DNA from: an uncultured Dehalococcoidaceae bacterium
Lineage (GTDB): Bacteria > Chloroflexota > Dehalococcoidia > Dehalococcoidales > RBG-16-60-22
Direction of reading: 5' to 3'
Assembly: GCA_964588605.1 (NCBI GenBank)
Contig: CAZPQB010000004.1
Location: 1,341-65,340, forward strand
DNA: 64,000 nt
The notes under the pieces were generated by a model. That model searched no databases. It saw nothing but the letters and a program-made list of their open reading frames with translations, and was not told where the DNA came from. Made by a program: the position numbers and the translations under genes. This document shows positions 33,890-64,000 of this stretch, piece by piece; position 1 is the first letter of the stretch; each line of letters starts with the position of its first letter.

Positions 33890-33909
33890 TTCAGACCTCA
33901 CTTTATTAT

Positions 33910-34436: not shown

Positions 34437-34465
34437 TTGAACTCTTGCTTATCACGGACTATAAT
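34437..34465 (+). promoter_or_regulatory. Sigma70-type promoter for the second NarL-type two-component operon (TTGAAC-17 nt-TATAAT)
   Basis: TTGAAC at 34437-34442, a 17-nt spacer, TATAAT at 34460-34465. Lies 38 nt upstream of ATG 34504. Confidence 0.6.
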
Positions 34466-34503
34466 GGTACGAGGAGATGCCATTGAGGCAGAAAAGGAAC
34501 AAT

Positions 34504-35166
34504 ATGGGCAAGATAAATGTTATTATCGCTGATGACCATGTGCTTTTCCGAGAGGGAACACGCAACCTGATTGAAAAAGAGAAGGATATGGAGGTTATTG
34601 GTGAGGCCAGCGACGGCGAAGAGGCGGCTGAGCTCGTCCGTAAAAAATCTCCCCACGTGGTTTTAATGGATATTGCCATGCCCAAGGTCAACGGTATCGA
34701 GGCAACGCGAAAGATTAAAGCCAGCCAACCTTCTACAGCCGTGTTGATTCTAACGGCTTATGATAACGACCAGTATATTATGGCACTGCTGGAGGCAGGG
34801 GCGGCTGGATATCTGTTAAAGAATGTCAGCGGCAAGGACTTAATCAACGCTATCCGCGCCGTGCATGCCGGTGAGGCGGTACTCCATCCGACCATCGCCC
34901 AGAAGGTCTTTAGCCGCTTCGGCGCCGGTCAGGAAGCCAGGGAGCCAGTACAGGTAGCCGAACTCAGCGAACGTGAAACGGAGATATTAAGGTTAGCCGC
35001 CCAAGGCATGAGCAATCAGGATATCGCCGGTAAGCTCTTTGTAAGCCGACGCACCGTGCAGGCACATCTGGCCAATATCTTCCGCAAGATGGATGTAGGC
35101 TCTAGAACCGAGGCAGTTTTGCAGGCACTGAGAAAAGGCTGGTTAGGTCTGGACGACCTGGCGTAG
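34504..35166 (+). CDS. NarL/LuxR-family response regulator (paralogue of 21704..22366)
   Basis: About 220 aa from ATG 34504 (the ORF track starts at 34477). Contains VIIADDH, VVLMDIAMP, LILTAY, YLLKN and LSERETEILRLAAQGMSNQDIAGKLFVSRRTVQAHLANIFRKM. Confidence 0.9.
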   Translation: MGKINVIIADDHVLFREGTRNLIEKEKDMEVIGEASDGEEAAELVRKKSPHVVLMDIAMPKVNGIEATRKIKASQPSTAVLILTAYDNDQYIMALLEAGAAGYLLKNVSGKDLINAIRAVHAGEAVLHPTIAQKVFSRFGAGQEAREPVQVAELSERETEILRLAAQGMSNQDIAGKLFVSRRTVQAHLANIFRKMDVGSRTEAVLQALRKGWLGLDDLA

Positions 35167-35190
35167 TGCCTGACAAAGAGGATAATATCT

Positions 35191-37149
35191 GTGAAGAGTA
35201 TATACAGGGTTCCGCATTTCTGGATTATCCTGGCTATTATGGTCTTCGGGGCCCTTACCTACTATGCTGACCGGATACCCCTACTCCAGACAATAGTACC
35301 TCAGGTACATATTCAATTCGCCCGCTATTCAACATTCCGTATTCTCTCCATCATCCCGGTGGCTTATGCTGCCTTTGTCTTCAGACTGACGGGCGGGGTG
35401 ATCACAGCCATTTTCATCAGTCTGGCACTCCTACCTCGGGCCGTTCTCTTCTCTGACCAGGTGTCAGAGTCAGTAACCGAGACGATAGCATTCTTTTTCA
35501 TCGGACTGCTCGTAAGCTGGCTTATTCATCGGCAACAACAAGCGGTTCATCAACTGGAGAATGCCCAGCAGAAGCTTCAGGCAGATGTTCAGATTATTAA
35601 AAATGATGAGAAGCGTCTTGCCGCTCTTAACCAGATAGCAAGCACCGTCTCTGAATCGCTTGAGCTGAGCTATGTCCTGAGCAACGCTATCGACAATGTC
35701 GTTGATGTCATGCAGGTTGATGTCGCCTGGATATTTCTGCTCGATGAAGAAACCAGTGAGCTTTCCCTGGCAGCTCACCGTGGCTCATCCGAAGAGCTTG
35801 CCCGGGGAGTGGACAGGCTTAAGCTGGGAGAAGGTTTCAACGGCAGTGTCGCCCAGTCCGGGCAACCCCTTTTTGTGGAGGATGCTTCCCAGGACCCCAG
35901 ACTCACAAGGGAGGTCGTCAGTAAGTTTAAACTGCACTCCACGCTGATTGTTCCTCTCAGTTCTAAAAGAAAGGTTAATGGCACCATCTGTATATCAATG
36001 TACAGCTACCGCCAGTTTCAGCCGGAGGAGGTGGAACTGCTTATCGCCATCGGTAATCAGATTGGCGTTGCCGTTGAAAACGCGCACCTTTATCAGCAGC
36101 AGCAGGTTACCGCTCAGCAACTGCGGATATCGGAGGAACGCTACCGAGGCCTGTTTGAAAATTCCAGTGATGCCATTTTCATCTGCTCCACAGCCGCCAG
36201 GATTATCTCGGTTAACAGGGCCTGTGAGGAGCTTACCGGCTTTACACAGAAAGAACTGACATCCACGTCCATCTATGAACTCTTTTCCGGCGTGAGCCAG
36301 GAGAAGGTCAAACACCTTTTTTCGGAAAAAATGGAGCAGGTAACGGTCGGCGGGGTTGTGGAGGTCGGTCTGACCAGAAAGGATGGAACAGAGGCATTTA
36401 TTGAGCTCAGGATTGGCCCTCTACTGAGAAGGAACGAAGTAATCGGTCTGCAGGTTATTGCCCAGGACGTAACCGAGGAAAAACAACTGCGGCAGAATAT
36501 GGAGTATTACATCAAACAGGTGACAAGAGCCCAGGAGGACGAACGATTACGCATCTCTCGTGAACTCCATGACGACACCGCTCAAATTCTGGCTACTCTT
36601 TCGCGCGGCCTGGACTCGCTTGTCGCGGAAGAGAAGGAACTGGCCAAGCCGATAATAGAACGGCTGGAGAAACTGCATGAGATGTCTGACTCGGCTCTCG
36701 AAGGCGTACGCCGCTTCAGCCAGGACTTGAGACCATCAATACTGGACGACCTTGGTTTGATACCCGCGCTCGAGTGGCTCATTACCGACCTTGAGAAGAG
36801 CTACCAGATTACCACGAAGGTCAATATAACCGGTAAAAAACGGCGGCTTGCGCCGGAAGGAGAATTGACCGTCTTTCGCATCGCCCAGGAAGTATTAAGT
36901 AATATCAGGCGACATTCACAGGCTTCAGCGGTTGAGATGAATCTGGATTATGGAGTTGACGCTTTGACTTTAATCATTAACGACAACGGTATAGGGTTTA
37001 AAATGCCCGAAAGGACAAGCGATCTAGCCCTGTCCGGGAAGATAGGCATCATCGGGATGCGCGAAAGAGCACGCCTTATTGGAGGGACCTTGATTGTACA
37101 ATCAGAACCGGGCATGGGCACCACGGTAACTCTGAGGATTCCCAGTTAA
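35191..37149 (+). CDS. Sensor histidine kinase (4-TM module, GAF, PAS, HisKA_3, HATPase_c)
   Basis: 652 aa, GTG start. A GAF-like region spans ~150-300 and a PAS domain ~310-430. H-box ISRELHDDTAQIL, N-box EVLSNIRRH, G-boxes DNGIGF and GIIGMRERA. Confidence 0.88.
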   Translation: MKSIYRVPHFWIILAIMVFGALTYYADRIPLLQTIVPQVHIQFARYSTFRILSIIPVAYAAFVFRLTGGVITAIFISLALLPRAVLFSDQVSESVTETIAFFFIGLLVSWLIHRQQQAVHQLENAQQKLQADVQIIKNDEKRLAALNQIASTVSESLELSYVLSNAIDNVVDVMQVDVAWIFLLDEETSELSLAAHRGSSEELARGVDRLKLGEGFNGSVAQSGQPLFVEDASQDPRLTREVVSKFKLHSTLIVPLSSKRKVNGTICISMYSYRQFQPEEVELLIAIGNQIGVAVENAHLYQQQQVTAQQLRISEERYRGLFENSSDAIFICSTAARIISVNRACEELTGFTQKELTSTSIYELFSGVSQEKVKHLFSEKMEQVTVGGVVEVGLTRKDGTEAFIELRIGPLLRRNEVIGLQVIAQDVTEEKQLRQNMEYYIKQVTRAQEDERLRISRELHDDTAQILATLSRGLDSLVAEEKELAKPIIERLEKLHEMSDSALEGVRRFSQDLRPSILDDLGLIPALEWLITDLEKSYQITTKVNITGKKRRLAPEGELTVFRIAQEVLSNIRRHSQASAVEMNLDYGVDALTLIINDNGIGFKMPERTSDLALSGKIGIIGMRERARLIGGTLIVQSEPGMGTTVTLRIPS

Positions 37150-50649: not shown

Positions 50650-51094
50650 TAATCCAGTGCCTCCTTATTTAACTACTGTACAGTATATGAATATATCATG
50701 ATTGGGCTTAGCTGTAAACAGTTGAAGGCGAGATGTTTTTGCATTTAACGACATATTCGGCCAACGTTAGCAGGTGGGTGATTATGATATACCGCGTCTA
50801 GAGTCGGCGGCTTAATTCAGAAAATACCTAGGTTAAAACCGTATATACCTCATATTAATACGCATTTATGCCTAATTTTCACAATTGCGACTAGGTATAA
50901 AGTGTAAGTTAGAGGCAAGTAGTTTAGTAGTTAATAGCATAAGAAACAGGCATTAATACGGAAGATAAATAGACAAAGTAATGTTAGTCTGAGAGCGGAG
51001 GTAAGAGAAGATGATAGAAGGAAGTCTCTTCAGCATCGTTCCAAAATCCAACTCTTATCTCTATAATATCTTCGCTTGAAAGGGGGTGTGTGCG

Positions 51095-51265
51095 ATGGAA
51101 TGGCAGTTTATAGTTGCGTTGGTAGTAGCCATACCAATCATCCTGTTCCCGGCAGCGTTTATCTGGTACCTGAACATTGGTGGCATCTACGCTGCCATTA
51201 AGGAATCGAGGGCGAGGCGAGTTATCCGCGAGAAAGGTGTCAAGGCAACAGCCAAAGCCAAATAG
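51095..51265 (+). CDS. 56-aa single-pass membrane peptide (MEWQ family, copy 1); below the ORF-track size cutoff
   Basis: ATG 51095 preceded by a GAAAGGGGG RBS. Hand translation gives MEWQFIVALVVAIPIILFPAAFIWYLNIGGIYAAIKESRARRVIREKGVKATAKAK, ending at TAG 51263-51265. Paralogous to the next gene and to the N-terminus of 55073..56749. Confidence 0.55.
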   Translation: MEWQFIVALVVAIPIILFPAAFIWYLNIGGIYAAIKESRARRVIREKGVKATAKAK

Positions 51266-51320
51266 CCATGACACCAGAAGAGATAAACAGAAATACTTGG
51301 AAAGGGGGGAATAAAACAAA

Positions 51321-51512
51321 ATGGAATGGCAGGTAATACTAGCCCTGGTAATCGCGATACCCGTAATCCTTTTTGTCCCGTTACTGGTCTGGGTAGCGGT
51401 GGTCAGCGGTGTGTACCAGGTTGCTCGTGACAGGCTACGGCGGCGCGTTACCATCACACGAAGGAAAGCGGTAACACCAGTCGAAGAAACAGTAGCTCAC
51501 GAGGTTACTTAA
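51321..51512 (+). CDS. 63-aa single-pass membrane peptide (MEWQ family, copy 2)
   Basis: MEWQVILALVIAIPVILFVPLLVWVAVVSGVYQVARDRLRRRV... GAAAGGGGGGA RBS, followed immediately by a strong terminator. Confidence 0.6.
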   Translation: MEWQVILALVIAIPVILFVPLLVWVAVVSGVYQVARDRLRRRVTITRRKAVTPVEETVAHEVT

Positions 51513-51542
51513 AAGGGAGTAGAAATACTCCCTTTTTCATTT
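51513..51542 (+). terminator. Rho-independent terminator/attenuator between the peptide genes and hdrC
   Basis: AAGGGAGTA (51513-51521), GAAA tetraloop, TACTCCCTT (51526-51534), then TTTCATTT. Confidence 0.75.
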
Positions 51543-51615
51543 GAGTAAGGAGATTTATTCGTTTATAAACCCAAATTGAGTCATTAATAGCACATATATC
51601 GAGAGGGGGAGCTTT

Positions 51616-52185
51616 ATGGTAGTAGAGACAAAGGCTAAGACTTTTGTAGATGAAATCTGTGCTATCCCCGGCGGTGAAGGTATTCGACTCTGCATCCAGT
51701 GTGGTACCTGCACCGCTTCTTGTCCTAATGCCGAAAAAATGGACCATACACCCTCAGAGCTCATAGCTATGGCGCGGGCCGGCATGCGTAAGGAAGTTTT
51801 ATCCAGCAATGCCATGTGGTATTGCCTGTCCTGCTACCTGTGTACGGTGCGCTGCCCAAGAGGGATAAAGCAGACAGACCTGATGCATGCCCTGGAGTAC
51901 CTGGCAGAACGCGCCGGGCTGAGCTGTGCCGGTAGTTTCACGCCCACTATGTACCGAAGCTTCAACCACTTTGCCTGCAGCTTGGGAAGTCTCCCTGAAT
52001 TCGGATTCATGACCTGGTTCTATATATTGAGTAATCCACTGCGTGCCTGGCGGATGATTCCGATAGCGCTGAGTCTGTTCAGGCATGGCCGCCTGTCTAT
52101 AAGGGCGAGAAGGCTGACACCGAAAGGAACCAACCAGCTAAGAGCTATTCTTGATGAAGCCGAATCTCTGGGAGGTGTCAGTTGA
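51616..52185 (+). CDS. hdrC: Heterodisulfide reductase subunit C-like (2x4Fe-4S)
   Basis: 189 aa. CIQCGTCTASCP and CLSCYLCTVRCP motifs. GAGAGGGGGA RBS. Its stop overlaps the hdrB start by 4 nt. Confidence 0.85.
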   Translation: MVVETKAKTFVDEICAIPGGEGIRLCIQCGTCTASCPNAEKMDHTPSELIAMARAGMRKEVLSSNAMWYCLSCYLCTVRCPRGIKQTDLMHALEYLAERAGLSCAGSFTPTMYRSFNHFACSLGSLPEFGFMTWFYILSNPLRAWRMIPIALSLFRHGRLSIRARRLTPKGTNQLRAILDEAESLGGVS

Positions 52186-53054
52186 AATACTATACATATT
52201 TTCCAGGCTGTTCCGCCTCTGAGGGAGGCGCCAAGGCGTATAACCTATCAGCCCAAGCTGTAAGTAAAGTCCTGGATACCGACCTCGTTGAGCTCGAAGA
52301 CTGGAACTGCTGCGGCTCGACGCCATCCATCTCAGTCGATGAACTTGGTGCCCATTGTATGGCGGCACGTAACCTTGCCCTTGCCGAAAAGAGGGGACTG
52401 GATATGGTAACGCCATGTAGCGCCTGCTACGTTGTTTTAAACCATACCAACGCCTATCTTAAGGGATACCCCCAGTTCAAAGCCAAAGTAGACAAAGCTC
52501 TGGCGGCCGGTGGCTTGGAGTACCACGGCACGGTAAAAGTCCGGCACCTCCTTGATGTTATCACCACCGATATTGGCTACGATGCCATCACGTCCAGGGT
52601 GAAAAAACCACTAAGTGAACTGAAAGTGGCCCCCTATTATGGCTGCCAGGTCATCCGCCCCAAATTTGGTTTTGACCATCCCGAGGCCCCCCAATCCCTG
52701 GATAAACTGGTAGGCAGTCTGGGGGCAGAGCCCATTTACTTCCCGCTCAAGGCCCGCTGCTGCGGGGGTTCACTGATTATTTCCGAAGAAGATGTAGCAT
52801 TAGACCTGATTCAGAAAATTTTCGATTCTGCCTCAAGCAACGGGGCTCAGTGCATTATTACAGTCTGTCCACTATGCCAGACAAATCTCGACGCCTATCA
52901 GAGCCGAGTCAACAAGAAGTTTAAAACCCATTTCAACCTCCCGGTCCTCTTCTTCACCCAGCTTATGGGTATTGCTTTTGGACTTGGCGAAAATGAACTC
53001 GGTTTGAAGAATAGTATCGTACCGGTAGAAAAGGCCTTGTCAAAATATATCTAA
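52182..53054 (+). CDS. hdrB: Heterodisulfide reductase subunit B-like (two CCG domains)
   Basis: 290 aa, TTG start. CCG motifs WNCCGST...PCSACY and ARCCGGS...VCPLCQ. Confidence 0.88.
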
Positions 53055-53064
53055 GGAGCGAAAA

Positions 53065-55026
53065 ATGGAGCCAAAAATTGGTGTCTATGTTTGCCACTGC
53101 GGAGCCAATATCGCCGGCACGGTTGACGTGGTACAGGTCACCGAATACGCTAAAACCCTACCATCAGTGGTGGTGACGCGTGATTATAAATTCATGTGCT
53201 CAGACCCGGGGCAGGACTTAATCAAGAACGATATTAAGGAAATGGGACTGAACCGCGTCGTGGTGGCCTCATGTTCACCCCGACTACACGAGCCTACGTT
53301 CAGGCGTACCATAGCCAGCGCCGGTTTGAATCCTTATCTCTTTGAAATGGCCAATATCCGTGAGCAATGCGCCTGGGTACATCAGGACAGTGAGAAGGCT
53401 ACTCAGAAGGCAAAAGCACTCGTCACTGCTGCCGTAAGACGCGTCTTCTGCCACGAACCACTGGAGACGAAGGAAGTCGCCGTTAATCCATGTACGCTGG
53501 TGGTAGGTGCCGGCATTGCCGGGATACAGGCAACCCTGGAGATAGCAGATTCCGGCCAGAAAGTCTATCTGGTAGAGCGGGAGCCATCAATCGGCGGCAA
53601 TATGGCCCGGCTGGACAAGACCTTCCCCACCTTAGACTGCTCGGCCTGAATACTCACCCCGAAGATGGCCTCGGTGAGGTCACACGAAAACATCGAGCTG
53701 ATGACATACAGTGAGGTGGTGGATGTATCAGGATACGTGGGCAATTTCAAGGTAAAAATAAAAAAGAAGCCGCGCTACGTGGATGAAAATAAATGCACCG
53801 GGTGCGGCACGTGCCAAGAGAAGTGCCCCATGAAAGCGGATAATGAATTTGACTGCGGGCTTGGTACCAGAAAGGCAATCTATACGCCTTTCCCCCAGGC
53901 AGTGCCCAACGTACCGGTTATCGATACAGAGCATTGTACCTATTTCCTTAAAGGCAAGTGCCGTGCCTGCGAGATGTTCTGCGAGGCAAAGGCGATTGAC
54001 TTCGAGCAAAAGGAAAAAACGGTTGAAGTGGATGTGGGCAATATTATTATTGCCAGCGGTTTTGATTCTTTCGACCCCACCGTAATACCCCAGTTCGGCT
54101 ACGGCCAATACGATAACGTTCTTACCGGCATACAGTTTGAGAGAATGAGCAATGCCTCCGGCCCCACAGACGGCCATCTGGTACTCAAGGACGGCTCACC
54201 GCCACGCAGTGTAGCTATCCTGCACTGTATCGGCAGCCGTGATGAGAATTACCATAAATATTGCTCGAGGGTCTGCTGCATGTACTCGCTGAAATTCTCT
54301 CATCTATTGAAAGAGAAGCTGCCCGAGGCGACTGTATACCAGCTATACATCGATATGCGCTGCGCCGGCTCAGGCTACGAAGAGTTCTACGAGCGGATTC
54401 AGGAGGAGGGGGTAAACTTCGTCCGGGGGAAGGCGGGGGAGATTACCAACATCGCCGAAAGCCCTGAAGAAGAGGGCAAGCTGATAGTCATTGTCGAGGA
54501 TACGCTGGTACGCCGCAAACGGCGGCTCCCCGTGGATATGGTAATCCTGAGCTGCGCTTTAGAGCCCCGTGCCGACATTGAGGATGTCGCCAGGCTCTTC
54601 TCACTGAGTCGCAAGGCAGACGGGTTCTTCCTGGAGAAGCACCCGAAGCTTGACCCCGTCGCCACGACGACAGACGGAATTTTCGTCGCCGGCTGCTGTC
54701 AGAGTCCCAAAGACATCCCGGATACGGTAGCTCAGGCATCGGCGGCCGCCGCCAGGGTCCTTGCCATGATAAGTAAGGGCAGCGTGGAAATCGAATCCAC
54801 CATCGCCGTTGTGGATGAGGAGCACTGCGCCGGCTGCAAAATATGTATCGACCTCTGTGCTTATAAGGCTATTACCTTTGATGAAGAGAAAAAGGTCGCC
54901 AGCATTAATGAGGCGCTCTGCAAGGGCTGCGGCACCTGCGTGGCCGCCTGCCCCAGCGGTGCCATCAAGGGTAGACACTTTACCACCGAGCAAATTATAT
55001 CTGAAATCGAGGGGGTGTTAGCATGA
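53065..55026 (+). CDS. hdrA: Heterodisulfide reductase subunit A, selenocysteine-containing (in-frame TGA at 53647-53649)
   Basis: ORF-track pieces 53065..53649 and 53665..55026 share a frame and are separated only by a TGA plus 5 codons. The joined product reads [17 protein letters not shown], and I recall the conserved HdrA motif here as KTFPTNDCSMCIL. Downstream HdrA hallmarks are [11 protein letters not shown] and C-terminal 2x4Fe-4S. A hairpin follows the TGA. Confidence 0.85.
53653..53678 (+). promoter_or_regulatory. SECIS-like hairpin 3 nt downstream of the hdrA UGA
   Basis: CUCACC (53653-53658) pairs with GGUGAG (53673-53678). The upper stem is G-C, A-U, G-C with a CC bulge. The apical AUGG-containing loop lies about 16-20 nt after the UGA. 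Confidence 0.5.
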
Positions 55027-55072
55027 AAAAACATACAAATTTAAGCACAACTGTGCAGAAGGAGGTGTACTA

Positions 55073-56749
55073 ATGCAGTGGGAAGTTGGATTAGCACTAG
55101 GCATAGCCATACCCGTAATCCTTATTCCCGTGGCCTTTGTTCTTTACCTTACTATTTTCGGTCTCCACGCCAATACCAGGGAAGCGCGGGAAAGGAGAGC
55201 AGCAGCTCGCCGGTTGGTGCGTGAGGCGATGCAGATTATCAGGAATAAGCAGGCTGTAGACCGTTCGATACTTGAAGCTTTAGAGGCTGCCGAAGAAGGG
55301 CAGGCTGTCTCTAGAGAGGCGGAAGTTGAAGCAGCATCGCCAATGCGGATAACGCCGATGCCTGTACCCACAACGGAGAAAGCTGAGTTAGTCATCGTGG
55401 GGGGTAGCGCTGCCGGAATTCAGGCAGCGATTACAGCCAAAAGGCTTAACAACAATGTAGGGAAGATAACGGTTATTCGAAAAGAGTCAAAGGTATTGGT
55501 GCCCTGCGGCATTCCTTACATTTTCGGTACTCTGGGCTCGGCGGAGAAGAATCTGATACCTGATAGCGCCATAGGGGATGCCGAGTTAGTAATCGACGAG
55601 GTAACCTCAATCGACAGGATATCGCAGAGGGTTATCACAGCCGGGGGCAGGATCATCGGCTACGATAAGCTCATATTGGCAACCGGTTCTCAACCTGTAG
55701 TACCTCCAATACCAGGTAGAGAGTTGGACAATGTATATACCGTTAAAAAGGATGTGGAGTACCTGCAGGCATTGGACAAATCACTAGCCGAAGCAAAAGA
55801 TGTAGTGGTCATAGGAGGCGGGTTTATCGGGGTAGAATTTGCCGATGAATTACGCAAGCGGGGCTTGAATGTGACCATCGTCGAATTATTGCCGCATTGT
55901 CTCTCCTTAAATTGTGATGAACCGTTCTGCATACGGGTGGAGGAAGAGTTGGCGAAGGCTAACATAAAAGTATTATGTGGAAATGGTGTTAATCAGATTC
56001 TCGGCAATGGTAAGGTCAGTCATGTAGAGTTGTCCAGCGGAGAGCAACTAAAGGCAGACCTGGTCATGATGGCCATCGGCTCGGCACCTAATACTAGATT
56101 GGCGCAAGAGGCAGGCCTTGAGATTGGTGCTACCAAGGGCATTAAAGTAGACCAATATATGAGGACCAGTGACCCCAACATTTTTGCTATAGGGGATTGC
56201 GCCGAGAAATACTCCTTCTTTACCGCCAAGCCGGTCCCGTTACGTTTGGCCTCAATTGCCACAAATGAGGCCAGGATAGCTACGTCCAATCTCTTCAGGC
56301 CCTGCGTGGAGAACAAGGGTGTTATAGGAGTGTTTAGCACCAGAGTTGGAGACGTTGCCGTAGGCGCGGCCGGGCTGACAGAGAAGGCAGCCAGAGAGGC
56401 AGGGTTTGACGTGCTCATCGGTAAGGCGAGTGCTCCAGACAAGCATCCAGGCAGTATGCCCGGTGCCCAGCCGACGCAGGTCAACCTGATATCTGACCGA
56501 AGCAGCGGAAGGATACTGGGAGGCGAAGCATATGGTGGGGTGTCAGTTGGAGAGCTGACAAATGCTCTAGCTGTTCTGGTGGGGAACAAGGCAACGGCTG
56601 AGGATATTCGTTTTTCCCAGATAGGGACACATCCAGCGCTTACTGGTTCTCCCATAGTATATCACATAGTAAATGCAGCCGAGCAAGCAATGGTAGCTTA
56701 CCATGAATCTGTGGCTAAGGAACGTCTAGCTGATAAAACACTCGTCTAA
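55073..56749 (+). CDS. Membrane-anchored FAD-dependent pyridine nucleotide-disulfide oxidoreductase (CoA-disulfide reductase/NADH oxidase-like)
   Basis: 558 aa. Residues 1-33 (MQWEVGLALGIAIPVILIPVAFVLYLTIFGLH) are paralogous to the two MEWQ peptides. An Arg-rich helical linker follows, then LVIVGGSAAGIQAA (FAD), the redox Cys in VLVPCGIPY, VVVIGGGFIGVEFA (NAD(P)H) and a dimerisation domain. Confidence 0.85.
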   Translation: MQWEVGLALGIAIPVILIPVAFVLYLTIFGLHANTREARERRAAARRLVREAMQIIRNKQAVDRSILEALEAAEEGQAVSREAEVEAASPMRITPMPVPTTEKAELVIVGGSAAGIQAAITAKRLNNNVGKITVIRKESKVLVPCGIPYIFGTLGSAEKNLIPDSAIGDAELVIDEVTSIDRISQRVITAGGRIIGYDKLILATGSQPVVPPIPGRELDNVYTVKKDVEYLQALDKSLAEAKDVVVIGGGFIGVEFADELRKRGLNVTIVELLPHCLSLNCDEPFCIRVEEELAKANIKVLCGNGVNQILGNGKVSHVELSSGEQLKADLVMMAIGSAPNTRLAQEAGLEIGATKGIKVDQYMRTSDPNIFAIGDCAEKYSFFTAKPVPLRLASIATNEARIATSNLFRPCVENKGVIGVFSTRVGDVAVGAAGLTEKAAREAGFDVLIGKASAPDKHPGSMPGAQPTQVNLISDRSSGRILGGEAYGGVSVGELTNALAVLVGNKATAEDIRFSQIGTHPALTGSPIVYHIVNAAEQAMVAYHESVAKERLADKTLV

Positions 56750-56823
56750 GGGCAAACGACAAAAACTGTTGATTTATATCATCACTGCAGATTAAATTTT
56801 AGCCGAAATTCAGGGGGTGTAGC

Positions 56824-57246
56824 GTGAGCTTCGAACCAAAGATTGTAGGTATCCTGTGCAACTGGTGCTCATATGCCGGCGCTGACCTTGCCGGCACTTC
56901 GCGGAAGAAGTACGAGCCCAATATCAGAGTGGTACGGGTCATGTGCTCCGGAAGGGTAGACCCTACCTTCATACTGAAAGCATTTGAAAAGGGTGCTGAC
57001 GGCGTCCTGGTCTGCGGCTGACATCTCGGTGAATGTCATTACCTGGATGGTAATAAGAAGACAGCCCGCCGGATACCCTTACTGAAGAAAATGCTCTCTC
57101 AGCTCGGGATTGAAGACGAGCGGGTACGTTTGGAATGGGTCTCGGCATCAGAGGGAGACCGCTTTGCTGCCATCGTTAACGAGATGACGGAACAAATAAG
57201 GCAACTGGGACCTTTCAGTCGTAATGGAGGTAGTGAGAATGGCTAA
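56824..57246 (+). CDS. mvhD: MvhD/FlpD-like 2Fe-2S electron-transfer subunit, selenocysteine-containing (in-frame TGA at 57019-57021)
   Basis: The ORF-track piece 56824..57021 stops at a TGA, and the same frame continues to TAA 57244-57246. The joined 140-aa product reads [21 protein letters not shown]...[12 protein letters not shown], and I recall the MvhD motif here as GADGV.V.GCH.GDCHY. GTG start with an AGGGGG RBS. Confidence 0.8.
57022..57049 (+). promoter_or_regulatory. SECIS-like hairpin immediately downstream of the mvhD UGA
   Basis: 57022-57032 pairs with 57039-57049 (10 pairs including 2 G-U, and one C/U mismatch). The 6-nt loop is AUGUCA. Confidence 0.5.
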
Positions 57247-58201
57247 ACCAAAACTGGCTCTATACTGGGCGGCTTCCTGCGGCGGCTGTGATGTGGCTGT
57301 GCTTGACACCAATGAAAAGATACTGGATATCGCCAACCTGGTCGACATAGTGTTCTGGCCAATCGCCGTAGACTTTAAATACCATCACGTTAAAGCTATG
57401 GAGGACAAGAGCATTGATTTATGCCTCTTCAATGGAGCCGTCAGGAGCACCGAGCAGGAAGAGATTGCCAGACTGCTGCGTGATAAGTCCAAGGTAATGG
57501 TGGCCTTTGGCGCCTGCGCCTGCTTCGGCGGTATACCGGCACTGGCCAATTTCACCAGCCGTGACGAAATATTCCAGCGGGCTTACATAGAAGCACCCTC
57601 TAATGATAATAACGATGGCACTGTACCGCTTACTCAGACCAGGGTACCTGAAGGTGAACTGGAACTGCCCGAACTATTTGACACAGTGCTGACATTGGCG
57701 CAGGTAGTTGATGTGGAATACTTCGTCCCGGGCTGCCCGCCGCCGGTTGACCTTATCCTTAAGCTTGTCAATCTCTTCGCTCAGGGAGAATTACCTCCGG
57801 TGGGGTCGGTGATTGCCTCCGATAAGACGCTTTGTGACGAGTGTGAGCGTAAAAAAGAAGAGAAGAAGATAACCAGGCTTTACCGTCCCCACGAAATTAT
57901 ACCTGACCCTGAGAAATGCCTGCTAGAACAGGGTATAATCTGTTGCGGACCGGCAACACGGGGCGGGTGTGGTCTCCGGTGCATTAACGCCAATATGCCC
58001 TGCCGCGGCTGCTTCGGCCCGCCGCCGGGGGTAGCTGACCAGGGCGCCAAGCTGGTAAGCGCCATCGCGTCTATCTATCAGGGTGAGAGCGAGGAGGAAA
58101 TTAAGAAACTGGTCAACGAAGTGGTTGACCCGGCGGGTACTTTCTATAGATTCGGGCTGGCCGATTCGATGTTGAAGCGAAAACGTCTCCAGAAGAAGTA
58201 A
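57239..58201 (+). CDS. mvhG: [NiFe] hydrogenase small subunit, MvhG-like (group 3)
   Basis: About 320 aa from ATG 57239 (GGAGGTAGTGAG RBS; ATGGCTAA overlaps the mvhD stop). Proximal cluster motif WAASCGGCDVA, then FGACACFGG and C-terminal CCGP...GCGLRC...CRGC clusters. Confidence 0.85.
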   Translation: MAKPKLALYWAASCGGCDVAVLDTNEKILDIANLVDIVFWPIAVDFKYHHVKAMEDKSIDLCLFNGAVRSTEQEEIARLLRDKSKVMVAFGACACFGGIPALANFTSRDEIFQRAYIEAPSNDNNDGTVPLTQTRVPEGELELPELFDTVLTLAQVVDVEYFVPGCPPPVDLILKLVNLFAQGELPPVGSVIASDKTLCDECERKKEEKKITRLYRPHEIIPDPEKCLLEQGIICCGPATRGGCGLRCINANMPCRGCFGPPPGVADQGAKLVSAIASIYQGESEEEIKKLVNEVVDPAGTFYRFGLADSMLKRKRLQKK

Positions 58202-58205
58202 GGTA

Positions 58206-59687
58206 GTGACTAAAATGGAAAAAATCAGTATCGACCCCATAACCAGGCTTGAGGGACACGGCAAGATAGAAATCTTTCTCAATGATGATGGTGACGTGGC
58301 TAATGCTTATCTCCAGATACCGGAGCTTCGCGGATTCGAAAAATTCTGCGAAGGAAGGCCGGTTGAGGAGATGCCCCGGATAACGCCGCGTATCTGTGGC
58401 GTTTGCCCCGGTGCCCACCACATGGCATCCACCAAGGCAACTGATGCCGTCTACCACGTAGACCCACCGCCAGTCGCCAAGAAGCTGAGGGAGCTATTCT
58501 ACTGTGCCCACATGATTCACTCCCATGTTGCTCACTTTTATGCCCTGGCGGCCCCGGACTTTGTCCTGGGACCCACCAGCGATCCCGCCGAGAGGAATAT
58601 CCTAGGTCTGGTAGCCAAGGTTGGCCTTGACATCGGCAGCGAGGTTATAAAGCATCGAGCCTATGCCCAGGATATTCAGGCGGTCATCGGGGGCAAGGCG
58701 ACCCACCCTGTCTGCGGTCTGCCGGGTGGCATGAGCAAGCCAATCACCGAGGAGGAGCGAAAAGACTTCGAGGAGAAAGCCAAATCACTTATAGAGTTTG
58801 GTAAATTAGGCATGAAGTTGTTCGACGACCTGGTGCTGGCTAACAAGGAATACCTGGAGCTGATAACCGGCGATATCTATACCATGAACAGCTACTACAT
58901 GGGTATGGTTGACAGCAATAACAAGGTGAACTTCTACGAGGGTGACCTCCGCGTGGTTGACCCCGATGGCAAGGAGACCGCCAGATTCAAAGCGGCTGAC
59001 TATCTGGACTACATAGCCGAGCACACCGAGCCCTGGTCTTACCTAAAGTTCCCCTTCCTGAAAAAGGTTGGCTGGAAAGGTCTTGTTGACGGCAAAGACA
59101 GCGGCGTTTATCGTGTGAATTCTCTCGCCAGGCTGAATGTGGCTGACGGCGTGGCAACACCTCTGGCTCAGGCTGAGTACGAAAGGATGTATGAGACCCT
59201 GGGCGGCAAGCCGGTGCATGCCACACTTGCCTTCCACTGGGCCAGGCTAATCGAGATATTGTACGCCGCCGAGCGTCTCCTGGAGCTCTGCCAGGATAGC
59301 GAGATAACCAATCCCGACGTCAGGACCATCCCAACGGCCACTCCCGACGAGGGAGTAGGTGTTGTTGAGGCTCCTCGCGGCGTTCTGATTCACCACTATC
59401 AGACCGATGATAAGGGCATTATCGAGAAAGTGAACCTGATTGTGGCCACGGTAATGAATAACCCGGCAATGAATATGTCGGTCAAGAGGGCGGCCCAGGG
59501 TTTGATTAAGAAGGGTCAGGTGGCATCGGAAGGACTGCTGAATATGGTTGAGATGGCATTTCGCGCTTATGACCCGTGCATGGCCTGCGCCACTCATACA
59601 CTGCCCGGACAGATGCCGCTGGAGGTAGTTATCCACGATAGCAAGGGAGATGTAATTGACAGGCTCAGTCAGCACCTGCCCTCCTAA
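58206..59687 (+). CDS. mvhA: [NiFe] hydrogenase large subunit, MvhA-like (Cys type)
   Basis: 493 aa. RLEGHG, the N-terminal Ni ligand motif RICGVCPGAHH, the C-terminal DPCMACATH, and a cleavable extension. Confidence 0.9.
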   Translation: MTKMEKISIDPITRLEGHGKIEIFLNDDGDVANAYLQIPELRGFEKFCEGRPVEEMPRITPRICGVCPGAHHMASTKATDAVYHVDPPPVAKKLRELFYCAHMIHSHVAHFYALAAPDFVLGPTSDPAERNILGLVAKVGLDIGSEVIKHRAYAQDIQAVIGGKATHPVCGLPGGMSKPITEEERKDFEEKAKSLIEFGKLGMKLFDDLVLANKEYLELITGDIYTMNSYYMGMVDSNNKVNFYEGDLRVVDPDGKETARFKAADYLDYIAEHTEPWSYLKFPFLKKVGWKGLVDGKDSGVYRVNSLARLNVADGVATPLAQAEYERMYETLGGKPVHATLAFHWARLIEILYAAERLLELCQDSEITNPDVRTIPTATPDEGVGVVEAPRGVLIHHYQTDDKGIIEKVNLIVATVMNNPAMNMSVKRAAQGLIKKGQVASEGLLNMVEMAFRAYDPCMACATHTLPGQMPLEVVIHDSKGDVIDRLSQHLPS

Positions 59688-59730
59688 CAATCTAAGGTGA
59701 GAGTTACATATACATAAAGAGGATTAGGAA

Positions 59731-60189
59731 ATGAAGACACTGGTTCTGGGACTAGGCAACCCTATTCTCACCGACGATGGTGCAGGTGTCCGGGTTGCCA
59801 ATGAACTGGAACGCAGACTCGACCATGAGGCGACAGTTATGGAGACAAGCCTGGCTGGTCTTGACATACTGGACCTACTGGCTGACTATGACAGGGCTAT
59901 TATCATTGACGCTATTCAGACCGTCGGGGGCAGGCCAGGCCAGATTTACCGGCTTGACCCGGAGGTATTTGATGCCACCCGGCACGCCGCCTCGGTCCAC
60001 GATGTTAATTTCGGTACGGCTCTTAAGCTCGGTAAAAAGCTCGGCTTGGCTTTGCCATCCCGGATTGATATATTCGCTATTGAGGCGGCGGATACAAGCC
60101 GATTCAGTGAAGAATGTACCCCTGAAGTGACAGAGGCGATACTCCTTTGCGTTGAAATGATTGTTGATGAACTGAGAGCCACAGAGTAA
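59731..60189 (+). CDS. Hydrogenase maturation endopeptidase (HycI/HoxW/FrhD family)
   Basis: 152 aa. LVLGLGNPILTDDGAGVRV and IIIDA motifs. Confidence 0.85.
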   Translation: MKTLVLGLGNPILTDDGAGVRVANELERRLDHEATVMETSLAGLDILDLLADYDRAIIIDAIQTVGGRPGQIYRLDPEVFDATRHAASVHDVNFGTALKLGKKLGLALPSRIDIFAIEAADTSRFSEECTPEVTEAILLCVEMIVDELRATE

Positions 60190-60217
60190 AATATATCTAA
60201 ACCACCAGTGAGAAACC

Positions 60218-60946
60218 ATGAATAAAATTACTTTCAAGCCTTTCATCATGCCCCTGCTCCTTGTGTTATGCACCCTGTTTTACTATTTTGGAGAACTGGT
60301 AGACTGGGCGGCGTGGGATACGCTGCGGGCTAATTTCTTTTACGGTGTGCACGATATACACCGCCTCCTCTTTCTGGCGCCAATAATATACGCCGGCTAT
60401 ACCGCCAAGGTTAAAGGAGCGATTATCATCACGCTTGTGAGCTTCATTATCTTCCTGCCCCGCGCCTTTTTCATATCCCCTTTTCCTGACCCTTTACTCA
60501 GGATGATAATTTTTACTGTATTCGCCGGTGTTATTGGCTGCCTCGTTGGCATCATACGAAATCAGGCAGAAAAATCCCGGCAACTGGAGACAGTGATAGC
60601 CGCCGAAAGAGACAAGCTGTTCAGAATCGTAGATGGTATGGCCGACGGCGTCATTATCACCGGCCCCGATTACAGGATACGATTTATGAACTCCAATATA
60701 GTGAAGGATTTTGGCGAGGGTACCGGTTTGACCTGCCACGAACACCTGAAAAAGATTGATACTCCATGCGAGAAGGACTGTAAAATACCGGAAGTCATAA
60801 ACAATGGAGAGATTAGGAACTGGGAATGCCGGTTTCCAGACGGTAGAACCTATGAGATAGTGGCAGCTCCATACGTCGATTCCGACGGTACGGTATGTCA
60901 GATTTCTATATTCAGGAACATCACCAACTACCGTAAAAAAGTCTAG
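60218..60946 (+). CDS. Stand-alone membrane sensor: 4-TM module shared with the three kinases + Cys-containing PAS-like domain, no output domain
   Basis: 242 aa. IHRLLFLAPIIYAGYTAKVKGAIIITLVSFIIFLPRAFFIS matches the kinase N-termini. The PAS-like region is LFRIVDGMADGVIITGPDYRIRFMN...TCHEHL...PCEKDC...WECRF. Confidence 0.65.
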   Translation: MNKITFKPFIMPLLLVLCTLFYYFGELVDWAAWDTLRANFFYGVHDIHRLLFLAPIIYAGYTAKVKGAIIITLVSFIIFLPRAFFISPFPDPLLRMIIFTVFAGVIGCLVGIIRNQAEKSRQLETVIAAERDKLFRIVDGMADGVIITGPDYRIRFMNSNIVKDFGEGTGLTCHEHLKKIDTPCEKDCKIPEVINNGEIRNWECRFPDGRTYEIVAAPYVDSDGTVCQISIFRNITNYRKKV

Positions 60947-61406: not shown

Positions 61407-61748
61407 CTAGATGCTGTTAAACCACTTCTCTTTGAACGTTTCCATATATTCGTCATAAGGATAGGTACGGGCCACATCATCCTTCCTGAAGCTATACTTG
61501 TAGCCAGCACAGTAGTCCAGAAGTAGCTTATATGCCCAGTTCAATCTTTTCATAGTTTCGCTTTCGGCCTGGTCTTTGTCGACAACCTTATCAGGATGAT
61601 GCCGTTTCGCCATATGCCGGTAGGCACTCTTTATCTCCTTGAGAGTAGCTGCCTCGCCAAGTCCCAGTAGCTTTCTTGCCTCTTCTATCTCGCTGAATTT
61701 CGCCATGTTCCCTGTCCTCGACCAGAGTAATACCTCAACATACCTCAC
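61407..61748 (-). CDS. J-domain (DnaJ-like) protein
   Basis: 113 aa. LKEIKSAYRHMAKRHHPDK contains the HPD tripeptide. There is no Zn-finger or C-terminal DnaJ domain. Confidence 0.75.
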   Translation of the reverse strand: MRYVEVLLWSRTGNMAKFSEIEEARKLLGLGEAATLKEIKSAYRHMAKRHHPDKVVDKDQAESETMKRLNWAYKLLLDYCAGYKYSFRKDDVARTYPYDEYMETFKEKWFNSI

Positions 61749-61758
61749 CAGCTATGCT

Positions 61759-63084
61759 TTAACCGAGTTTGTCAATTAGACGGTGCAAGGGGACAGCTAT
61801 CTGGTCTTCCTGTACATGAGGCGAGTAGCTGCTGTCAATCTGAACCAGCTTTGCCAGCGGCATTTTACAGGCAATAGCTACTGCCAGCTTGTCTACCGTA
61901 CCGGTTACTATCTCCTCGGAGATTATCTGGGCCCCGATCAGGGTCCCGGTCTTGTCGTCGGCAACAAGTTTGTAACGGGCAGGTTTACCGTTAAACCTGT
62001 CCCGAAGACGAGGTGTATCAACGGTAACCGAAACGGCGTTTAAACCCTTTTCCCCGGCTTCTCTTTCGGTAAAGCCTACGGCCCCTATCTGGTGGCCGAA
62101 TATCTTGGTTACGAAAGGCATCACCGTGCCTTCGTAAGTGAGCCGATTGCCCTGAGCTACATTTCTGCCGGCGATAAACCCGGTCCGAATAGCGTTACTG
62201 GCAAGTTGGTGGCGTCTCTTGGAGCCGGTAACCATGTCCCAGTTCTCCATACAATCACCAATGGCATAGATATCAGGGTTACTGGTTTGCAGATATTTGT
62301 TTACCACTATCGCCCCCGTCTCGCCTACATCCAGCCCCGCTTTACGAGCCAGACCTGCATTGGGCACGGCTCCGGTTCCAAAGATGATGAAATCCACAGT
62401 TAGTTCGCGGTCAGAGAGAATAACCTGCTTTTTACCTCCAGTGCCGGCTACGCTTTTAACATCGGCCGGCATAATCACTTCCACTCCGTTCTCCGCCAGA
62501 ACGCTTTCCACCTTTTCTGCCATATCCTGGTCCAGGTTTGCCCGCAATATAGCCCGTCTGACCAGAAGGTAGACCTTGCTATATCCCCTGGATTTTAGAG
62601 CCGCGGCAATTTCCAGGCTGATGAAGCCACCGCCAATAATAGCTGCCTCGGTATACTGAGGAATGATACTCGTCAGAGCCATGCCATCCGCCACATCGGT
62701 GCTCAGAGTATATTCATTCTTTCCATCCAATCCTGGAAAGGAAGGAATGACAGGCGTGGAACCAAGAGCCAGAATGAGCTTATCATATCCATATTTTTTA
62801 CCATTGGCGACCAGATATTTGTCCTGCCTGATAATGTCGGAAACCTCGGTATTCAAATGCATCTCTATATTTCGTTTCTCCCAGAACGACATACTACGAA
62901 AGCCGCGAGCCAACTCATCCCAGCTGGCGATATCCCCACTGATGACCAAGGGCATCTCGCACGGTGGAACGCCGAGTTCCACCCTTCGACTGAAAGTATC
63001 GATTTGCGCCTCGCTACCCATGCGGCTAATCTGGTTAGCTGCCGTAGCACCGGCATCCCCGGAACCGATGATGCAAATTTTCAA
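61759..63084 (-). CDS. FAD-dependent pyridine nucleotide-disulfide oxidoreductase (CoADR/Nox-like)
   Basis: 441 aa. ICIIGSGDAGATAA (FAD), the redox Cys in GVPPCEMPL, AAIIGGGFISLEIA (NAD(P)H), YAIGDC and a dimerisation domain. Confidence 0.85.
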   Translation of the reverse strand: MKICIIGSGDAGATAANQISRMGSEAQIDTFSRRVELGVPPCEMPLVISGDIASWDELARGFRSMSFWEKRNIEMHLNTEVSDIIRQDKYLVANGKKYGYDKLILALGSTPVIPSFPGLDGKNEYTLSTDVADGMALTSIIPQYTEAAIIGGGFISLEIAAALKSRGYSKVYLLVRRAILRANLDQDMAEKVESVLAENGVEVIMPADVKSVAGTGGKKQVILSDRELTVDFIIFGTGAVPNAGLARKAGLDVGETGAIVVNKYLQTSNPDIYAIGDCMENWDMVTGSKRRHQLASNAIRTGFIAGRNVAQGNRLTYEGTVMPFVTKIFGHQIGAVGFTEREAGEKGLNAVSVTVDTPRLRDRFNGKPARYKLVADDKTGTLIGAQIISEEIVTGTVDKLAVAIACKMPLAKLVQIDSSYSPHVQEDQIAVPLHRLIDKLG

Positions 63085-63141
63085 TTGCTTTTCCCCCTTC
63101 TGCTATTTCTCTCACTTTTAATTAACAAAAACAGGGCTGTC

Positions 63142-63501
63142 CTAGTTTTTACTCGTTTCTTTATCTCTTGCTTTCAATTTTTCAACTCTAACCAGGATGT
63201 CATCCACCCTTCTGGATAGCGTCTGAACCTGCTGTCCCAGGGCTTTTACGGACACACTAACCCCCATCTCCCGGGATGAAGCGGAATCCAGTCCATAGTG
63301 ATACACCGGCACCTGCGCTCCTACAACTTTACTTATTGCATAACCCGACCAGGAGTCCTGCATACAGCCGAAAGGCGAAGCTCTTTCTTCGGCTACCGCC
63401 TTGGCGAACTGGCCACAATTCTGGAATCCGCAGAGCCCGCAGTCCATCTTGGGCAACGCTTCATAAATTCTCTTTATCTTTTCCCTATTGCCATCTGCCA
63501 T
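63142..63501 (-). CDS. Small Fe-S protein with an RnfB-N-terminal-type (PF04060-like) 4Fe-4S motif and a coiled-coil tail
   Basis: 119 aa. LPKMDCGLCGFQNCGQFAKAVAEERASPFGC matches the remembered LP..nCG.CG...C..fA......C pattern. Confidence 0.62.
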   Translation of the reverse strand: MADGNREKIKRIYEALPKMDCGLCGFQNCGQFAKAVAEERASPFGCMQDSWSGYAISKVVGAQVPVYHYGLDSASSREMGVSVSVKALGQQVQTLSRRVDDILVRVEKLKARDKETSKN

Positions 63502-63575
63502 CGTTCCTGCCTCTTTTTCCTATCGCATGCTTTCAGCACTTTTTATAATATTATGGATTGGAGAAGCACCGGCAA

Positions 63576-64000
63576 TCAGCCCAGCTTATCCGCTAACTCC
63601 CTTACCCCGTACGCTAGCGGGTCTATTCCCACGGCGGGCGAATAAGGGGACTCAAGCCGGGCTAACCTCGGCAACGGCACTTTCTCGGCTATAGCCAGGG
63701 CCAACTCGTTAATCAGACCCCTTATCATCTCCTCCGAAACGATTTGTGCTCCAACCAGGGCGCCGGACCGGCGTTCAGCGATGAGCTTGTAGTGAACGTG
63801 CTTACCGCCATAATGCGGGCGTGTGGTAGGATGACTAACCTTGACGGAGACAACATCCAATCCATTTTCCCGGGCAATCCTCTCGGTAAAACCTGCGGCA
63901 CCTATTTGATAGCCAAAGATTTCAATGGTGAAGGTCATGAGCGTCCCCTCATAGGTCAAAGTATTTCCTGAAACCGAATTTTCACCGGCCACACTGCCGG
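63576..64000 (-). CDS. FAD-dependent pyridine nucleotide-disulfide oxidoreductase, C-terminal part (5' end outside window); paralogue of 61759..63084
   Basis: LTYEGTLMTFTIEIFGYQIGAAGFTE...YKLIAERRSGALVGAQIVSEE aligns colinearly with LTYEGTVMPFVTKIFGHQIGAVGFTE...YKLVADDKTGTLIGAQIISEE. The frame is open to the window edge. Confidence 0.8.
   Translation of the reverse strand, partial: GSVAGENSVSGNTLTYEGTLMTFTIEIFGYQIGAAGFTERIARENGLDVVSVKVSHPTTRPHYGGKHVHYKLIAERRSGALVGAQIVSEEMIRGLINELALAIAEKVPLPRLARLESPYSPAVGIDPLAYGVRELADKLG

Follow-up and report, generated by a model that had tools for sequence, protein, structure and literature searches.

A Dehalococcoidia hdr-mvh operon with tandem membrane-peptide genes, a 4TM-PAS gene, and an optional peptide-anchored flavoprotein

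Introduction

In hydrogenotrophic methanogens, MvhADG-HdrABC is a soluble, H2-dependent heterodisulfide reductase that operates by flavin-based electron bifurcation; its selenocysteine (Sec) form is Vhu/HdrAu. Hdr-Mvh-type complexes are also widespread in non-methanogenic anaerobes. The Dehalococcoidia are abundant in subsurface sediments and mostly uncultured. The locus described here belongs to an uncultured Dehalococcoidaceae bacterium (assembly GCA_964588605.1, contig CAZPQB010000004.1, positions 1,341-65,340; this stretch of 64,000 nt is called the window). It is an hdrCBA-mvhDGA operon and, unlike the methanogen genes, it is headed by genes for small membrane peptides, tailed by a gene for a protein with four predicted transmembrane (TM) helices and a PAS-like part (4TM-PAS), and carries a flavoprotein gene between hdrA and mvhD.

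With MvhADG-HdrABC, the locus shares all six subunit types, the maturation protease, and an HdrB with two CCG domains. As in the Sec-containing Vhu/HdrAu, HdrA and MvhD carry Sec at the known sites. In relatives, hdrA is directly followed by mvhD, as in the methanogen system. On the other hand, the host is bacterial, the subunits score below the archaeal equivalog cut-offs, and CoM-S-S-CoB cannot be assumed as the substrate of this Hdr. In bacteria, hdrA-mvhD(-mvhGA) clusters with Sec in HdrA and MvhD and an unknown acceptor are described in the sulfate reducer Desulfobacterium autotrophicum HRM2 (PMC2702500). The window locus resembles these clusters in its bacterial host and its Sec-containing HdrA and MvhD, and mvhD follows hdrA in HRM2; the hdr loci of HRM2 are, however, reported without peptide arrays, a 4TM-PAS gene, or a CoADR-type flavoprotein (PMC2702500).

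The fold of the flavoprotein, with a redox Cys in an xxxCG(L/I)PY loop, is that of CoA-disulfide reductase (CoADR), CoA-persulfide reductase (8a56), Npsr (3nt6), 6pfz, the CoA persulfide/polysulfide reductase of P. horikoshii (4fx9), Nox, and Npx. Unlike these single-Cys reductases, to which it is 20-32% identical, it has VLVPC instead of SFANC, no rhodanese domain, and an additional H-C-x4-C-x4-C motif; the anchored subclade further adds an N-terminal TM helix and a linker. For the free peptides, the likeness to known proteins is one of architecture only. CydX and TatA, for example, are small proteins with a single membrane span that go with respiratory enzymes or transport machines; similarly, the peptides (~40-70 aa) have one N-out TM helix, a Gly hinge, and a basic amphipathic segment, and they occur in redox-enzyme operons. 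Unlike CydX and TatA, with which no sequence relationship is detectable, they form tandem paralogue arrays and are almost confined to Dehalococcoidia/Chloroflexota in the data searched.

In the part of the literature covered, we found no account of a CoADR-type gene in hdr-mvh clusters, in line with the original prediction, in which the arrangement was not known to have been described, and no description of the peptide/PAS cassette, of a peptide-anchored flavoprotein, or of an insertion between hdrA and mvhD. Hdr-Mvh operons and the single-Cys flavoprotein class are already known; what most deserves further work is the peptide family.

Recurrence of the operon and insertion of the flavoprotein gene

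We collected 79 genome loci carrying the peptide family and mapped their genes (L-numbers label the compared genome loci and metagenome contigs, P-numbers database proteins). The operon that recurs in Dehalococcoidia is pep(1-5)-hdrCBA-mvhDGA-hycI-(4TM-PAS), often with a divergent GAF-PAS-HisKA_3 kinase and a LuxR-type regulator. The locus of the window is of this Dehalococcoidia type, an hdrCBA-mvhDGA-hycI operon with a group-3c-like [NiFe] hydrogenase and a soluble HdrABC.

The distance between hdrA and mvhG was compared with that in 12 other distinct loci that have both genes on one strand. In 10 of the 12, the gap is 379-478 nt, with room for mvhD only; such insert-free loci include close relatives (L020, with HdrA 91% and MvhG 92% identical, and L074, with 89% and 90%). 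The gap is 2.2 kb in the window and in L001, the nearest genome record, which is an uncultured Dehalococcoidaceae metagenome-assembled genome (proteins 90-97% identical, DNA ~88%). In L087, it is 4.1 kb and holds an Fdh-like gene. The order hdrA-flavoprotein-mvhD is found in five related contigs including the window, with flavoproteins 71-100% identical: next to L001 (96%) come the metagenome contigs L108 (91%), L109 (82%), and L110 (71%), in each of which hdrA lies 5′ and mvhD 3′ of the flavoprotein gene. The recurrence of this order, one of the points put forward for checking in the original prediction, is thus seen in these four loci and absent from most others. The same prediction made the place of the flavoprotein in the system depend on its presence in orthologous hdr-mvh loci, from which it is largely missing, even at about 90% identity. 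An event peculiar to one genome was also considered and rejected, since three more diverged contigs (L108, L109, and L110) carry the insert.

In insert-free loci, hdrA ends with ...GGGGGTATTAGCATGAGC and the ATG of mvhD overlaps the TGA stop of hdrA (GCATGAGC). In the window, this junction is present twice, once at the true end of hdrA and once as a decayed copy of ~50 nt 5′ of mvhD, which still provides the mvhD ribosome-binding site. A longer decayed copy is present in L108. The duplicated junction around the flavoprotein gene is the scar of an insertion, with decayed copies of the hdrA 3′ end on either side of the insert. The flavoprotein is an accessory and not a core subunit.

In a rough neighbour-joining tree of HdrA (225 residues), loci that carry the insert are intermingled with those that lack it. 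When the window is compared with L001, the flavoprotein gene has a synonymous divergence of 0.15 and pep1 one of 0.12, against 0.40 for hdrB and 0.28 for mvhG; the two low values hint at recent recombinational exchange. Repeated loss via the flanking repeats could explain the patchy distribution of the insert, and lateral spread through recombination could explain both that distribution and the low synonymous divergence of the flavoprotein gene. In the same comparison, dN/dS is 0.125 for the flavoprotein gene, which is dispensable for the operon, yet under purifying selection. The range over pep1, pep2, the flavoprotein, hdrB, mvhG, and the PAS protein is 0.06-0.24, so these are constrained genes. 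The flavoprotein gene owes its place between hdrA and mvhD to an insertion that is dispensable and specific to one clade, and its product should not be taken for a new core subunit of the bifurcating complex.

The anchored flavoprotein

The flavoprotein consists of a TM helix (residues 1-30), a linker helix (to ~81), a disordered acidic spacer (82-103), and a catalytic part (104-558); in the AlphaFold2 model, a single long helix spans residues 2-81 and is followed by the disordered spacer and the catalytic fold. That the anchor is shared with the two free peptides, as first noticed from the sequence, is borne out: the N-terminus (MQWEVGLALGIAIPVILIPVAFVLYL...) is 38-39% identical to both and matches the peptide profile with E = 3.7e-25. 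A very large family of soluble proteins of ~444 aa from Chloroflexi and Deltaproteobacteria, some with a receiver domain, matches the catalytic part at 60-66% identity. Among several thousand matches, only 13 clusters besides that of the window protein cover more than 80% of the query. A peptide-like TM segment is present in 12 of these 13, and P0013 has lost it. The linker, RRLVREA.QIIRNKQ...ILEA.EAAE, is conserved across the anchored forms.

Anchored flavoproteins also occur within peptide arrays at the head of operons. We observe pep-flavo-pep-pep-pep-hdrCBA-nuoEF-...-mvhD (L007), pep-flavo-(151 aa)-hdrCBA-GltD-like-mvhD (L104), pep-flavo-pep x4-Mo-pterin (L107), pep-pep-pep-flavo (L105), and pep-pep-flavo with two anchors next to a membrane-bound [NiFe] hydrogenase (L010). 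In L007 and L104, the anchored flavoproteins adjoin hdrCBA operons that use other electron-input modules. The array-borne proteins are 62-69% identical to the window protein, those inserted between hdrA and mvhD 71-96%. The anchored flavoprotein is a single-Cys enzyme plus one copy of the peptide and a conserved linker helix, and its normal place is the peptide array. In the simplest history, a soluble enzyme was fused to a peptide gene in an array, the fusion lived in arrays, and the clade of the window copied it into the hdrA/mvhD junction.

Among proteins of solved structure, searches by sequence and by fold both place the flavoprotein nearest to CoA-persulfide reductase (8a56), the A. fulgidus persulfide reductase/NoxA-3 (6pfz), CoADR, CoADR-RHD, and Npsr, followed by Nox and Npx, and its redox Cys is aligned in these matches. 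Foldseek returns the same set of enzymes (E = 1e-37 to 1e-33), with a TM-score on the target of 0.6-0.73 against CoAPR, CoADR, and Npx. Both Rossmann folds and the dimerisation domain are present (Pyr_redox_2 at 4.2e-64, Pyr_redox, Pyr_redox_dim). At the position of the redox Cys42/43 of this class, the lvPCGIPY of the flavoprotein aligns with fANCGLPY of 8a56, and Cys145 is invariant in 120 family members; the conserved redox Cys read from the motif VLVPCGIPY therefore stands. Judged from sequence and predicted fold, the flavoprotein is a single-Cys enzyme of the CoADR/Nox/persulfide-reductase type. It is not filed as a CoADR proper, because it scores below the cut-offs of TIGR03385 and NF007123. 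A Glu at the end of the Rossmann strand (Glu271) suggests NADH as the cofactor.

Just after the NADH-binding strand, an H-C-x4-C-x4-C motif (residues 275-286, window 55895-55930) is near-invariant across 120 anchored and soluble members and is missing from the solved CoADR/Nox/persulfide-reductase relatives; the confidence of the AlphaFold2 model is low there. This motif may form a Zn or an iron–sulfur (Fe-S) site. A scan of the PDB with it returned only TAZ2 zinc fingers, at chance level (E = 0.014), a weak hint of Zn and no more. Which of the two it binds bears on the ability of the flavoprotein to exchange electrons with Fe-S partners.

Two observations on the surroundings of the family may be added. 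Soluble homologues lie in a conserved cluster (L098-L100) with DUF5320, two MinD/Fer4 proteins, the flavoprotein, a Zn-ribbon protein, a CoA-binding protein, a NifX-like protein, NifU_N, and a ferredoxin. Genes of the TauE (sulfite-exporter) family adjoin the flavoprotein loci in L007 and L105 and a rhodanese gene adjoins that in L010, a weak hint of sulfur chemistry.

The membrane peptides

A profile built from 12 peptides and anchors finds 3750 proteins in a 90%-clustered database (E ≤ 1), and an exhaustive profile search gives 518 peptide clusters at 50% identity. The listed proteins, where named, are called hypothetical; the organisms, where given, are Dehalococcoidia/Chloroflexota, save for a single locus that bears the label Deltaproteobacteria. 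The peptides have no match among the models of Pfam and NCBIfam. Their consensus is MEWxVILALVLAIPVILFPVAFVWYLNIGGIYxAIREARxRR. On average, the first five residues carry a net charge of -0.65 and the 25 residues that follow the TM helix one of +4.1; because of this bias and the positive-inside rule, the N-terminus is predicted to be outside and the tail, or the fused domain, cytoplasmic.

The peptide genes (~60 aa each) form arrays of one to five tandem copies, with two genes in 51 of 95 arrays. The gene after the array is hdrC in 24 of the 95, a gene of molybdopterin (Mo-pterin)/Fe-S/NrfD type in 16, and the 4TM-PAS gene itself in 14; most of the others are followed by nothing from the gene panel. 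The peptides had been seen as dedicated to the flavoprotein or to Hdr, and this does not hold, because the arrays also head Mo-pterin/Fe-S/NrfD operons and the 4TM-PAS gene. Type B peptides (SG.YQV and then an Arg-rich tail) are always last in the array (17 arrays) and never first, which suggests a fixed heteromeric pairing of the peptides. Against L001, dN/dS is 0.24 for pep1 and 0.08 for pep2. Besides the flavoprotein, the anchor is fused to a GltD-like Fe-S N-terminus via the same linker (P0416) and to Cys-rich domains with two CW motifs (P0411, P0400), the two-CW matches being weak and below the cut-off.

Leader or attenuator peptides and precursors of ribosomally synthesised and post-translationally modified peptides were also considered for this family. 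They were rejected in view of the conserved TM helices, the purifying selection, the protein fusions, and the lack of modification enzymes nearby.

The 4TM-PAS protein

The PAS matches of the 4TM-PAS protein are weak and lie under the Pfam gathering scores (PAS_9 21.2 bits for a cut-off of 27, PAS_4 18.7 for 23.1). The AlphaFold2 model has a PAS-like β-sheet at poor confidence (pLDDT 61.6). The family comprises 660 clusters, whose organisms, where given, are all Dehalococcoidia/Chloroflexota; those listed share 68-93% identity with the protein of the window. Four Cys of the PAS part are invariant (C173, C184, C188, and C227, spaced C-x10-C-x3-C-x38-C), as is HDxHR in the second membrane helix, and there is no output domain. 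The protein is a candidate metal or Fe-S redox sensor. As with the peptides, the proposed dedication of this sensor to the flavoprotein and Hdr does not hold, with the gene standing directly behind 14 of the 95 arrays.

Functional interpretation

We lean, with moderate confidence, towards an Hdr-Mvh operon set in a peptide/4TM-PAS cassette, to which the anchored flavoprotein is an optional addition. By analogy with the methanogen MvhADG-HdrABC, the complex would oxidise H2 and bifurcate the electrons to ferredoxin and to a disulfide or sulfur acceptor at HdrB. The anchor would hold the catalytic domain of the flavoprotein at the cytoplasmic face of the membrane, where the protein probably associates with the free peptides. 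Its substrate, reduced with NADH, would be a (CoA-)disulfide, a persulfide, or a polysulfide, or possibly O2. Co-expression, and perhaps a common thiol/sulfur pool or substrate, would connect it with Hdr-Mvh; direct electron wiring would not.

Several points weigh against this interpretation. The flavoprotein scores well under the curated CoADR models (245 bits for a cut-off of 579 with TIGR03385, 218 for 458 with NF007123). Peptides also head operons whose products have a membrane anchor of their own, NrfD. If the H-C-x4-C-x4-C motif binds an Fe-S cluster, direct wiring from the flavoprotein to HdrA/MvhD would be possible. For the gene maps of the compared loci, we relied on a BLAST panel and our own open reading frame (ORF) caller; the HdrA tree is rough. 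Lastly, the order hdrA-flavoprotein-mvhD is kept down to 71% flavoprotein identity, and anchored flavoproteins accompany hdrCBA operons in three different layouts (the clade of the window, L007, and L104); the functional tie between the flavoprotein and Hdr may be tighter than that of an optional accessory.

These last observations, together with the co-directional, tightly spaced, and probably co-transcribed genes, the 24 arrays that head hdr operons, and the S-S/S-SH chemistry common to HdrB and the flavoprotein class, would suit the integrated supercomplex of the original prediction. There, flavoprotein, peptides, HdrABC, and MvhADG would be tethered together at the membrane and would link the oxidation of H2 both to NAD(P)H and to a thiol/disulfide or sulfur couple. 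A disulfide might, for instance, be reduced at HdrB and the thiol turned back by the flavoprotein with NAD+, or the flavoprotein might supply this pool from NADH. We regard such an assembly as unlikely. The flavoprotein is missing from most comparable loci, its distribution in the HdrA tree is patchy, and the scar marks it as a late addition; elsewhere, an anchored flavoprotein accompanies a Mo-pterin operon (L107) or stands alone (L010). Its solved relatives have only FAD and a Cys, with no Fe-S centre to join the cluster chain of Hdr/Mvh, and electron flow from thiols to NAD+ is uphill for most known thiols.

The neighbourhood of the arrays raises another role for the cassette. Of the 71 arrays with enough flank, 35 have a divergent LuxR-type regulator immediately upstream, usually with a GAF-PAS-HisKA_3 kinase, and a 4TM-PAS gene is found downstream of 27 arrays (within 350 nt in 12). 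The peptides and the four-Cys PAS protein could be membrane accessories of this pair of cytoplasmic kinase and regulator, in control of the redox operon that they enclose, with the anchored flavoprotein and the two-CW fusions as NADH/thiol sensors and not as metabolic enzymes. The lack of an output domain in the PAS protein would fit, as would the fusion of the anchor to two-CW domains, typical of sensor proteins, and the terminator-like hairpin that parts the peptides from the enzymes. A purely regulatory role is nevertheless rather improbable: no kinase or regulator lies beside half of the arrays, and the window (~50783-50811) lacks ~765 bp of L001 (2975-3739) with the LuxR-type response regulator that L001 keeps between a C_GCAxxG_C_C gene and pep1. 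None of the catalytic hallmarks is missing from the flavoprotein, a very large family of free-standing enzymes is ~60% identical to it, and up to five paralogous peptides per array would be unusual for kinase modulators.

More speculatively, and with a similarly low probability, the peptides may be a new modular class of membrane anchor or scaffold. Free copies would oligomerise, fused enzymes and sensors would plug in, and the basic tails would recruit Hdr-Mvh beside NrfD-type modules, in a quinone-independent, membrane-associated bifurcating supercomplex with a four-Cys PAS redox sensor. Finally, a membrane-held NADH oxidase or peroxidase that scavenges O2 ahead of the O2-sensitive Fe-S, [NiFe], and Sec enzymes of the neighbouring genes would agree with Nox and Npx among the best sequence and fold matches, with the label "NADH oxidase (H2O2-forming)" given to relatives in one data source, and with an optional presence typical of stress-protection genes, but it is very improbable, as the top matches in sequence and fold are persulfide and CoA-disulfide reductases and not oxidases, soluble homologues lie in clusters with CoA-binding, NifU, and Fe-S proteins, and no feature of the sequence distinguishes an oxidase.

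With the flavoprotein as an optional addition to the operon, the interest of the locus shifts to what is shared. The peptides, the four-Cys PAS protein, and the kinase-regulator pair recur across hdr-mvh and Mo-pterin/NrfD operons and offer a definite handle on how redox enzymes are organised and regulated at the membrane. The peptide-anchored flavoprotein is a natural experiment in that it indicates that the peptide can anchor a cytoplasmic enzyme.

Subunits of the operon and selenocysteine

The gene content and order first read from the window are confirmed by the ORF list and domain scans (Table 1). HdrB has two CCG domains for non-cubane [4Fe-4S] clusters (PF02754) and HdrC two ferredoxin-type cluster motifs (Fer4_8, Fer4_17). 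HdrA has the expected FAD/Fe-S architecture (NF040770) and Sec at the DCSxC/U site, where TGA and TGT interchange. The hydrogenase has the [NiFe] motifs RxCGxC and DPCxxC, a small subunit, and an endopeptidase. mvhD is neither fused to hdrA nor directly after it in the window, where the flavoprotein gene (1.7 kb) intervenes. All the subunits score under the curated equivalog cut-offs, the models being archaeal: HdrB (TIGR03288) 212 bits for 345, VhuA 450 for 800, VhuG about 220-221 for 450, and VhuD 139 for 215; HdrC reaches 81.6 bits with TIGR03290, also under the cut-off.

Sec in HdrA and MvhD, as originally predicted, is borne out by the related loci: at the HdrA site, 16 of them have TGA and seven have TGT, and at the MvhD site, 13 have TGA and six a Cys codon. 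The sequences 3′ of both UGA codons of the window were folded and gave no clear hairpin of the selenocysteine insertion sequence type (z about -1.3). HdrA and MvhD are considered selenoproteins because of the interchange of TGA and Cys codons among relatives and not because of such a hairpin. Both families are known to include selenoproteins (PMC2702500). ARAGORN finds no tRNA in the window, hence no tRNA-Sec there.

Table 1. Coordinates of the hdr-mvh locus and its associated features in the window
Feature	Position	Strand	Description
pep1	51095-51265	+	56-aa single-pass membrane peptide of type A with the motif WYLNIGGIY; its ATG (51095) agrees with the MEWQ start of the family
pep2	51321-51512	+	63-aa single-pass membrane peptide, type B, SGVYQV then Arg-rich tail; starts MEWQ
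Terminator-like hairpin	51513-51537	+	AAGGGAGUA-GAAA-UACUCCCUU and U tract, between pep2 and hdrC; from folding
hdrC	51616-52185	+	Fer4_8, Fer4_17; two [4Fe-4S] motifs
hdrB	52182-53054	+	PF02754 (CCG) matched twice
hdrA, selenoprotein	53065-55026	+	In-frame TGA at 53647-53649; read-through translation; NF040770 889 bits, residues 4-651
Left copy of duplicated hdrA-3′/mvhD-start junction	54982-55026	+	Alignment with insert-free loci
Peptide-anchored flavoprotein, 558 aa	55073-56749	+	Pyr_redox_2, Pyr_redox, Pyr_redox_dim; VLVPCGIPY; redox Cys145 at 55505-55507
Right, decayed copy of hdrA 3′ end	56778-56826	+	Just 5′ of mvhD; retains GGGGG ribosome-binding site
mvhD, selenoprotein	56824-57246	+	FlpD 5.9e-57; TGA at 57019-57021 (VLVCG-U-HLGECHY)
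mvhG, [NiFe] hydrogenase small subunit	57224-58201	+	Oxidored_q6; VhuG about 220-221 bits
mvhA, [NiFe] hydrogenase large subunit	58206-59687	+	NiFeSe_Hases; VhuA 450 bits; RICGVCPGAHH and DPCMACATH read from translation
Hydrogenase maturation endopeptidase, HycI/HybD type	59731-60189	+	PF01750, TIGR00072
4TM-PAS membrane protein, 242 aa	60218-60946	+	Four predicted membrane helices; weak PAS_9/PAS_4 matches

Junctions and the terminator-like hairpin

The co-directional junctions are short or overlapping, as described at the outset: hdrC and hdrB overlap by 4 nt, mvhD and mvhG by 23 nt, and the remaining gaps are 4-74 nt. The hairpin after pep2, noted as a terminator, is real. Its stem-loop occupies 51513-51534 and its U tract extends to 51537, with a fold of -17.8 kcal/mol for 51505-51550 (z = -4.9); it is absent from the output of a simple pattern scanner for terminators. 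Hairpins with a T tract are candidates in 13 of 23 spacers between the peptide genes and hdrC, about nine of them strong. In L007 (12372-12983), L069, L072, L082, and L087, the spacer from the last peptide gene to hdrC measures 480-700 nt, and that of L007 holds a small Zn-ribbon-like ORF. Rfam has no match in the window from 48 to 64 kb or in this long spacer of L007, and thus no riboswitch or known leader there.

Other genes of the window

Two further CoADR-like paralogues were announced downstream of the locus. They do exist, on the minus strand (61759-63084 and from 63576 onward), but their identity to the anchored enzyme is no more than 30% and 28%, which puts them in a different subfamily; duplication of the anchored enzyme was rejected as their origin on the same grounds. 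They are part of a minus-strand group (61407-64000) with a DnaJ-domain protein, the 441-aa flavoprotein paralogue, a PF04060 "putative Fe-S cluster" protein, and the second paralogue, the two paralogues being 52% identical to each other.

Further upstream, 27302-37149 (minus strand) contains genes for NuoE, a NuoF::GltD fusion (1019 aa), and a formate-dehydrogenase-like Mo-pterin protein (987 aa). Beside them lies a regulator-kinase pair of the GAF-PAS-HisKA_3 type, as is found with peptide arrays elsewhere. At 22944-25998, a gene for an 800-aa acetyl-CoA synthetase that carries a receiver domain at its N-terminus precedes a channel gene of the SatP/YaaH family.

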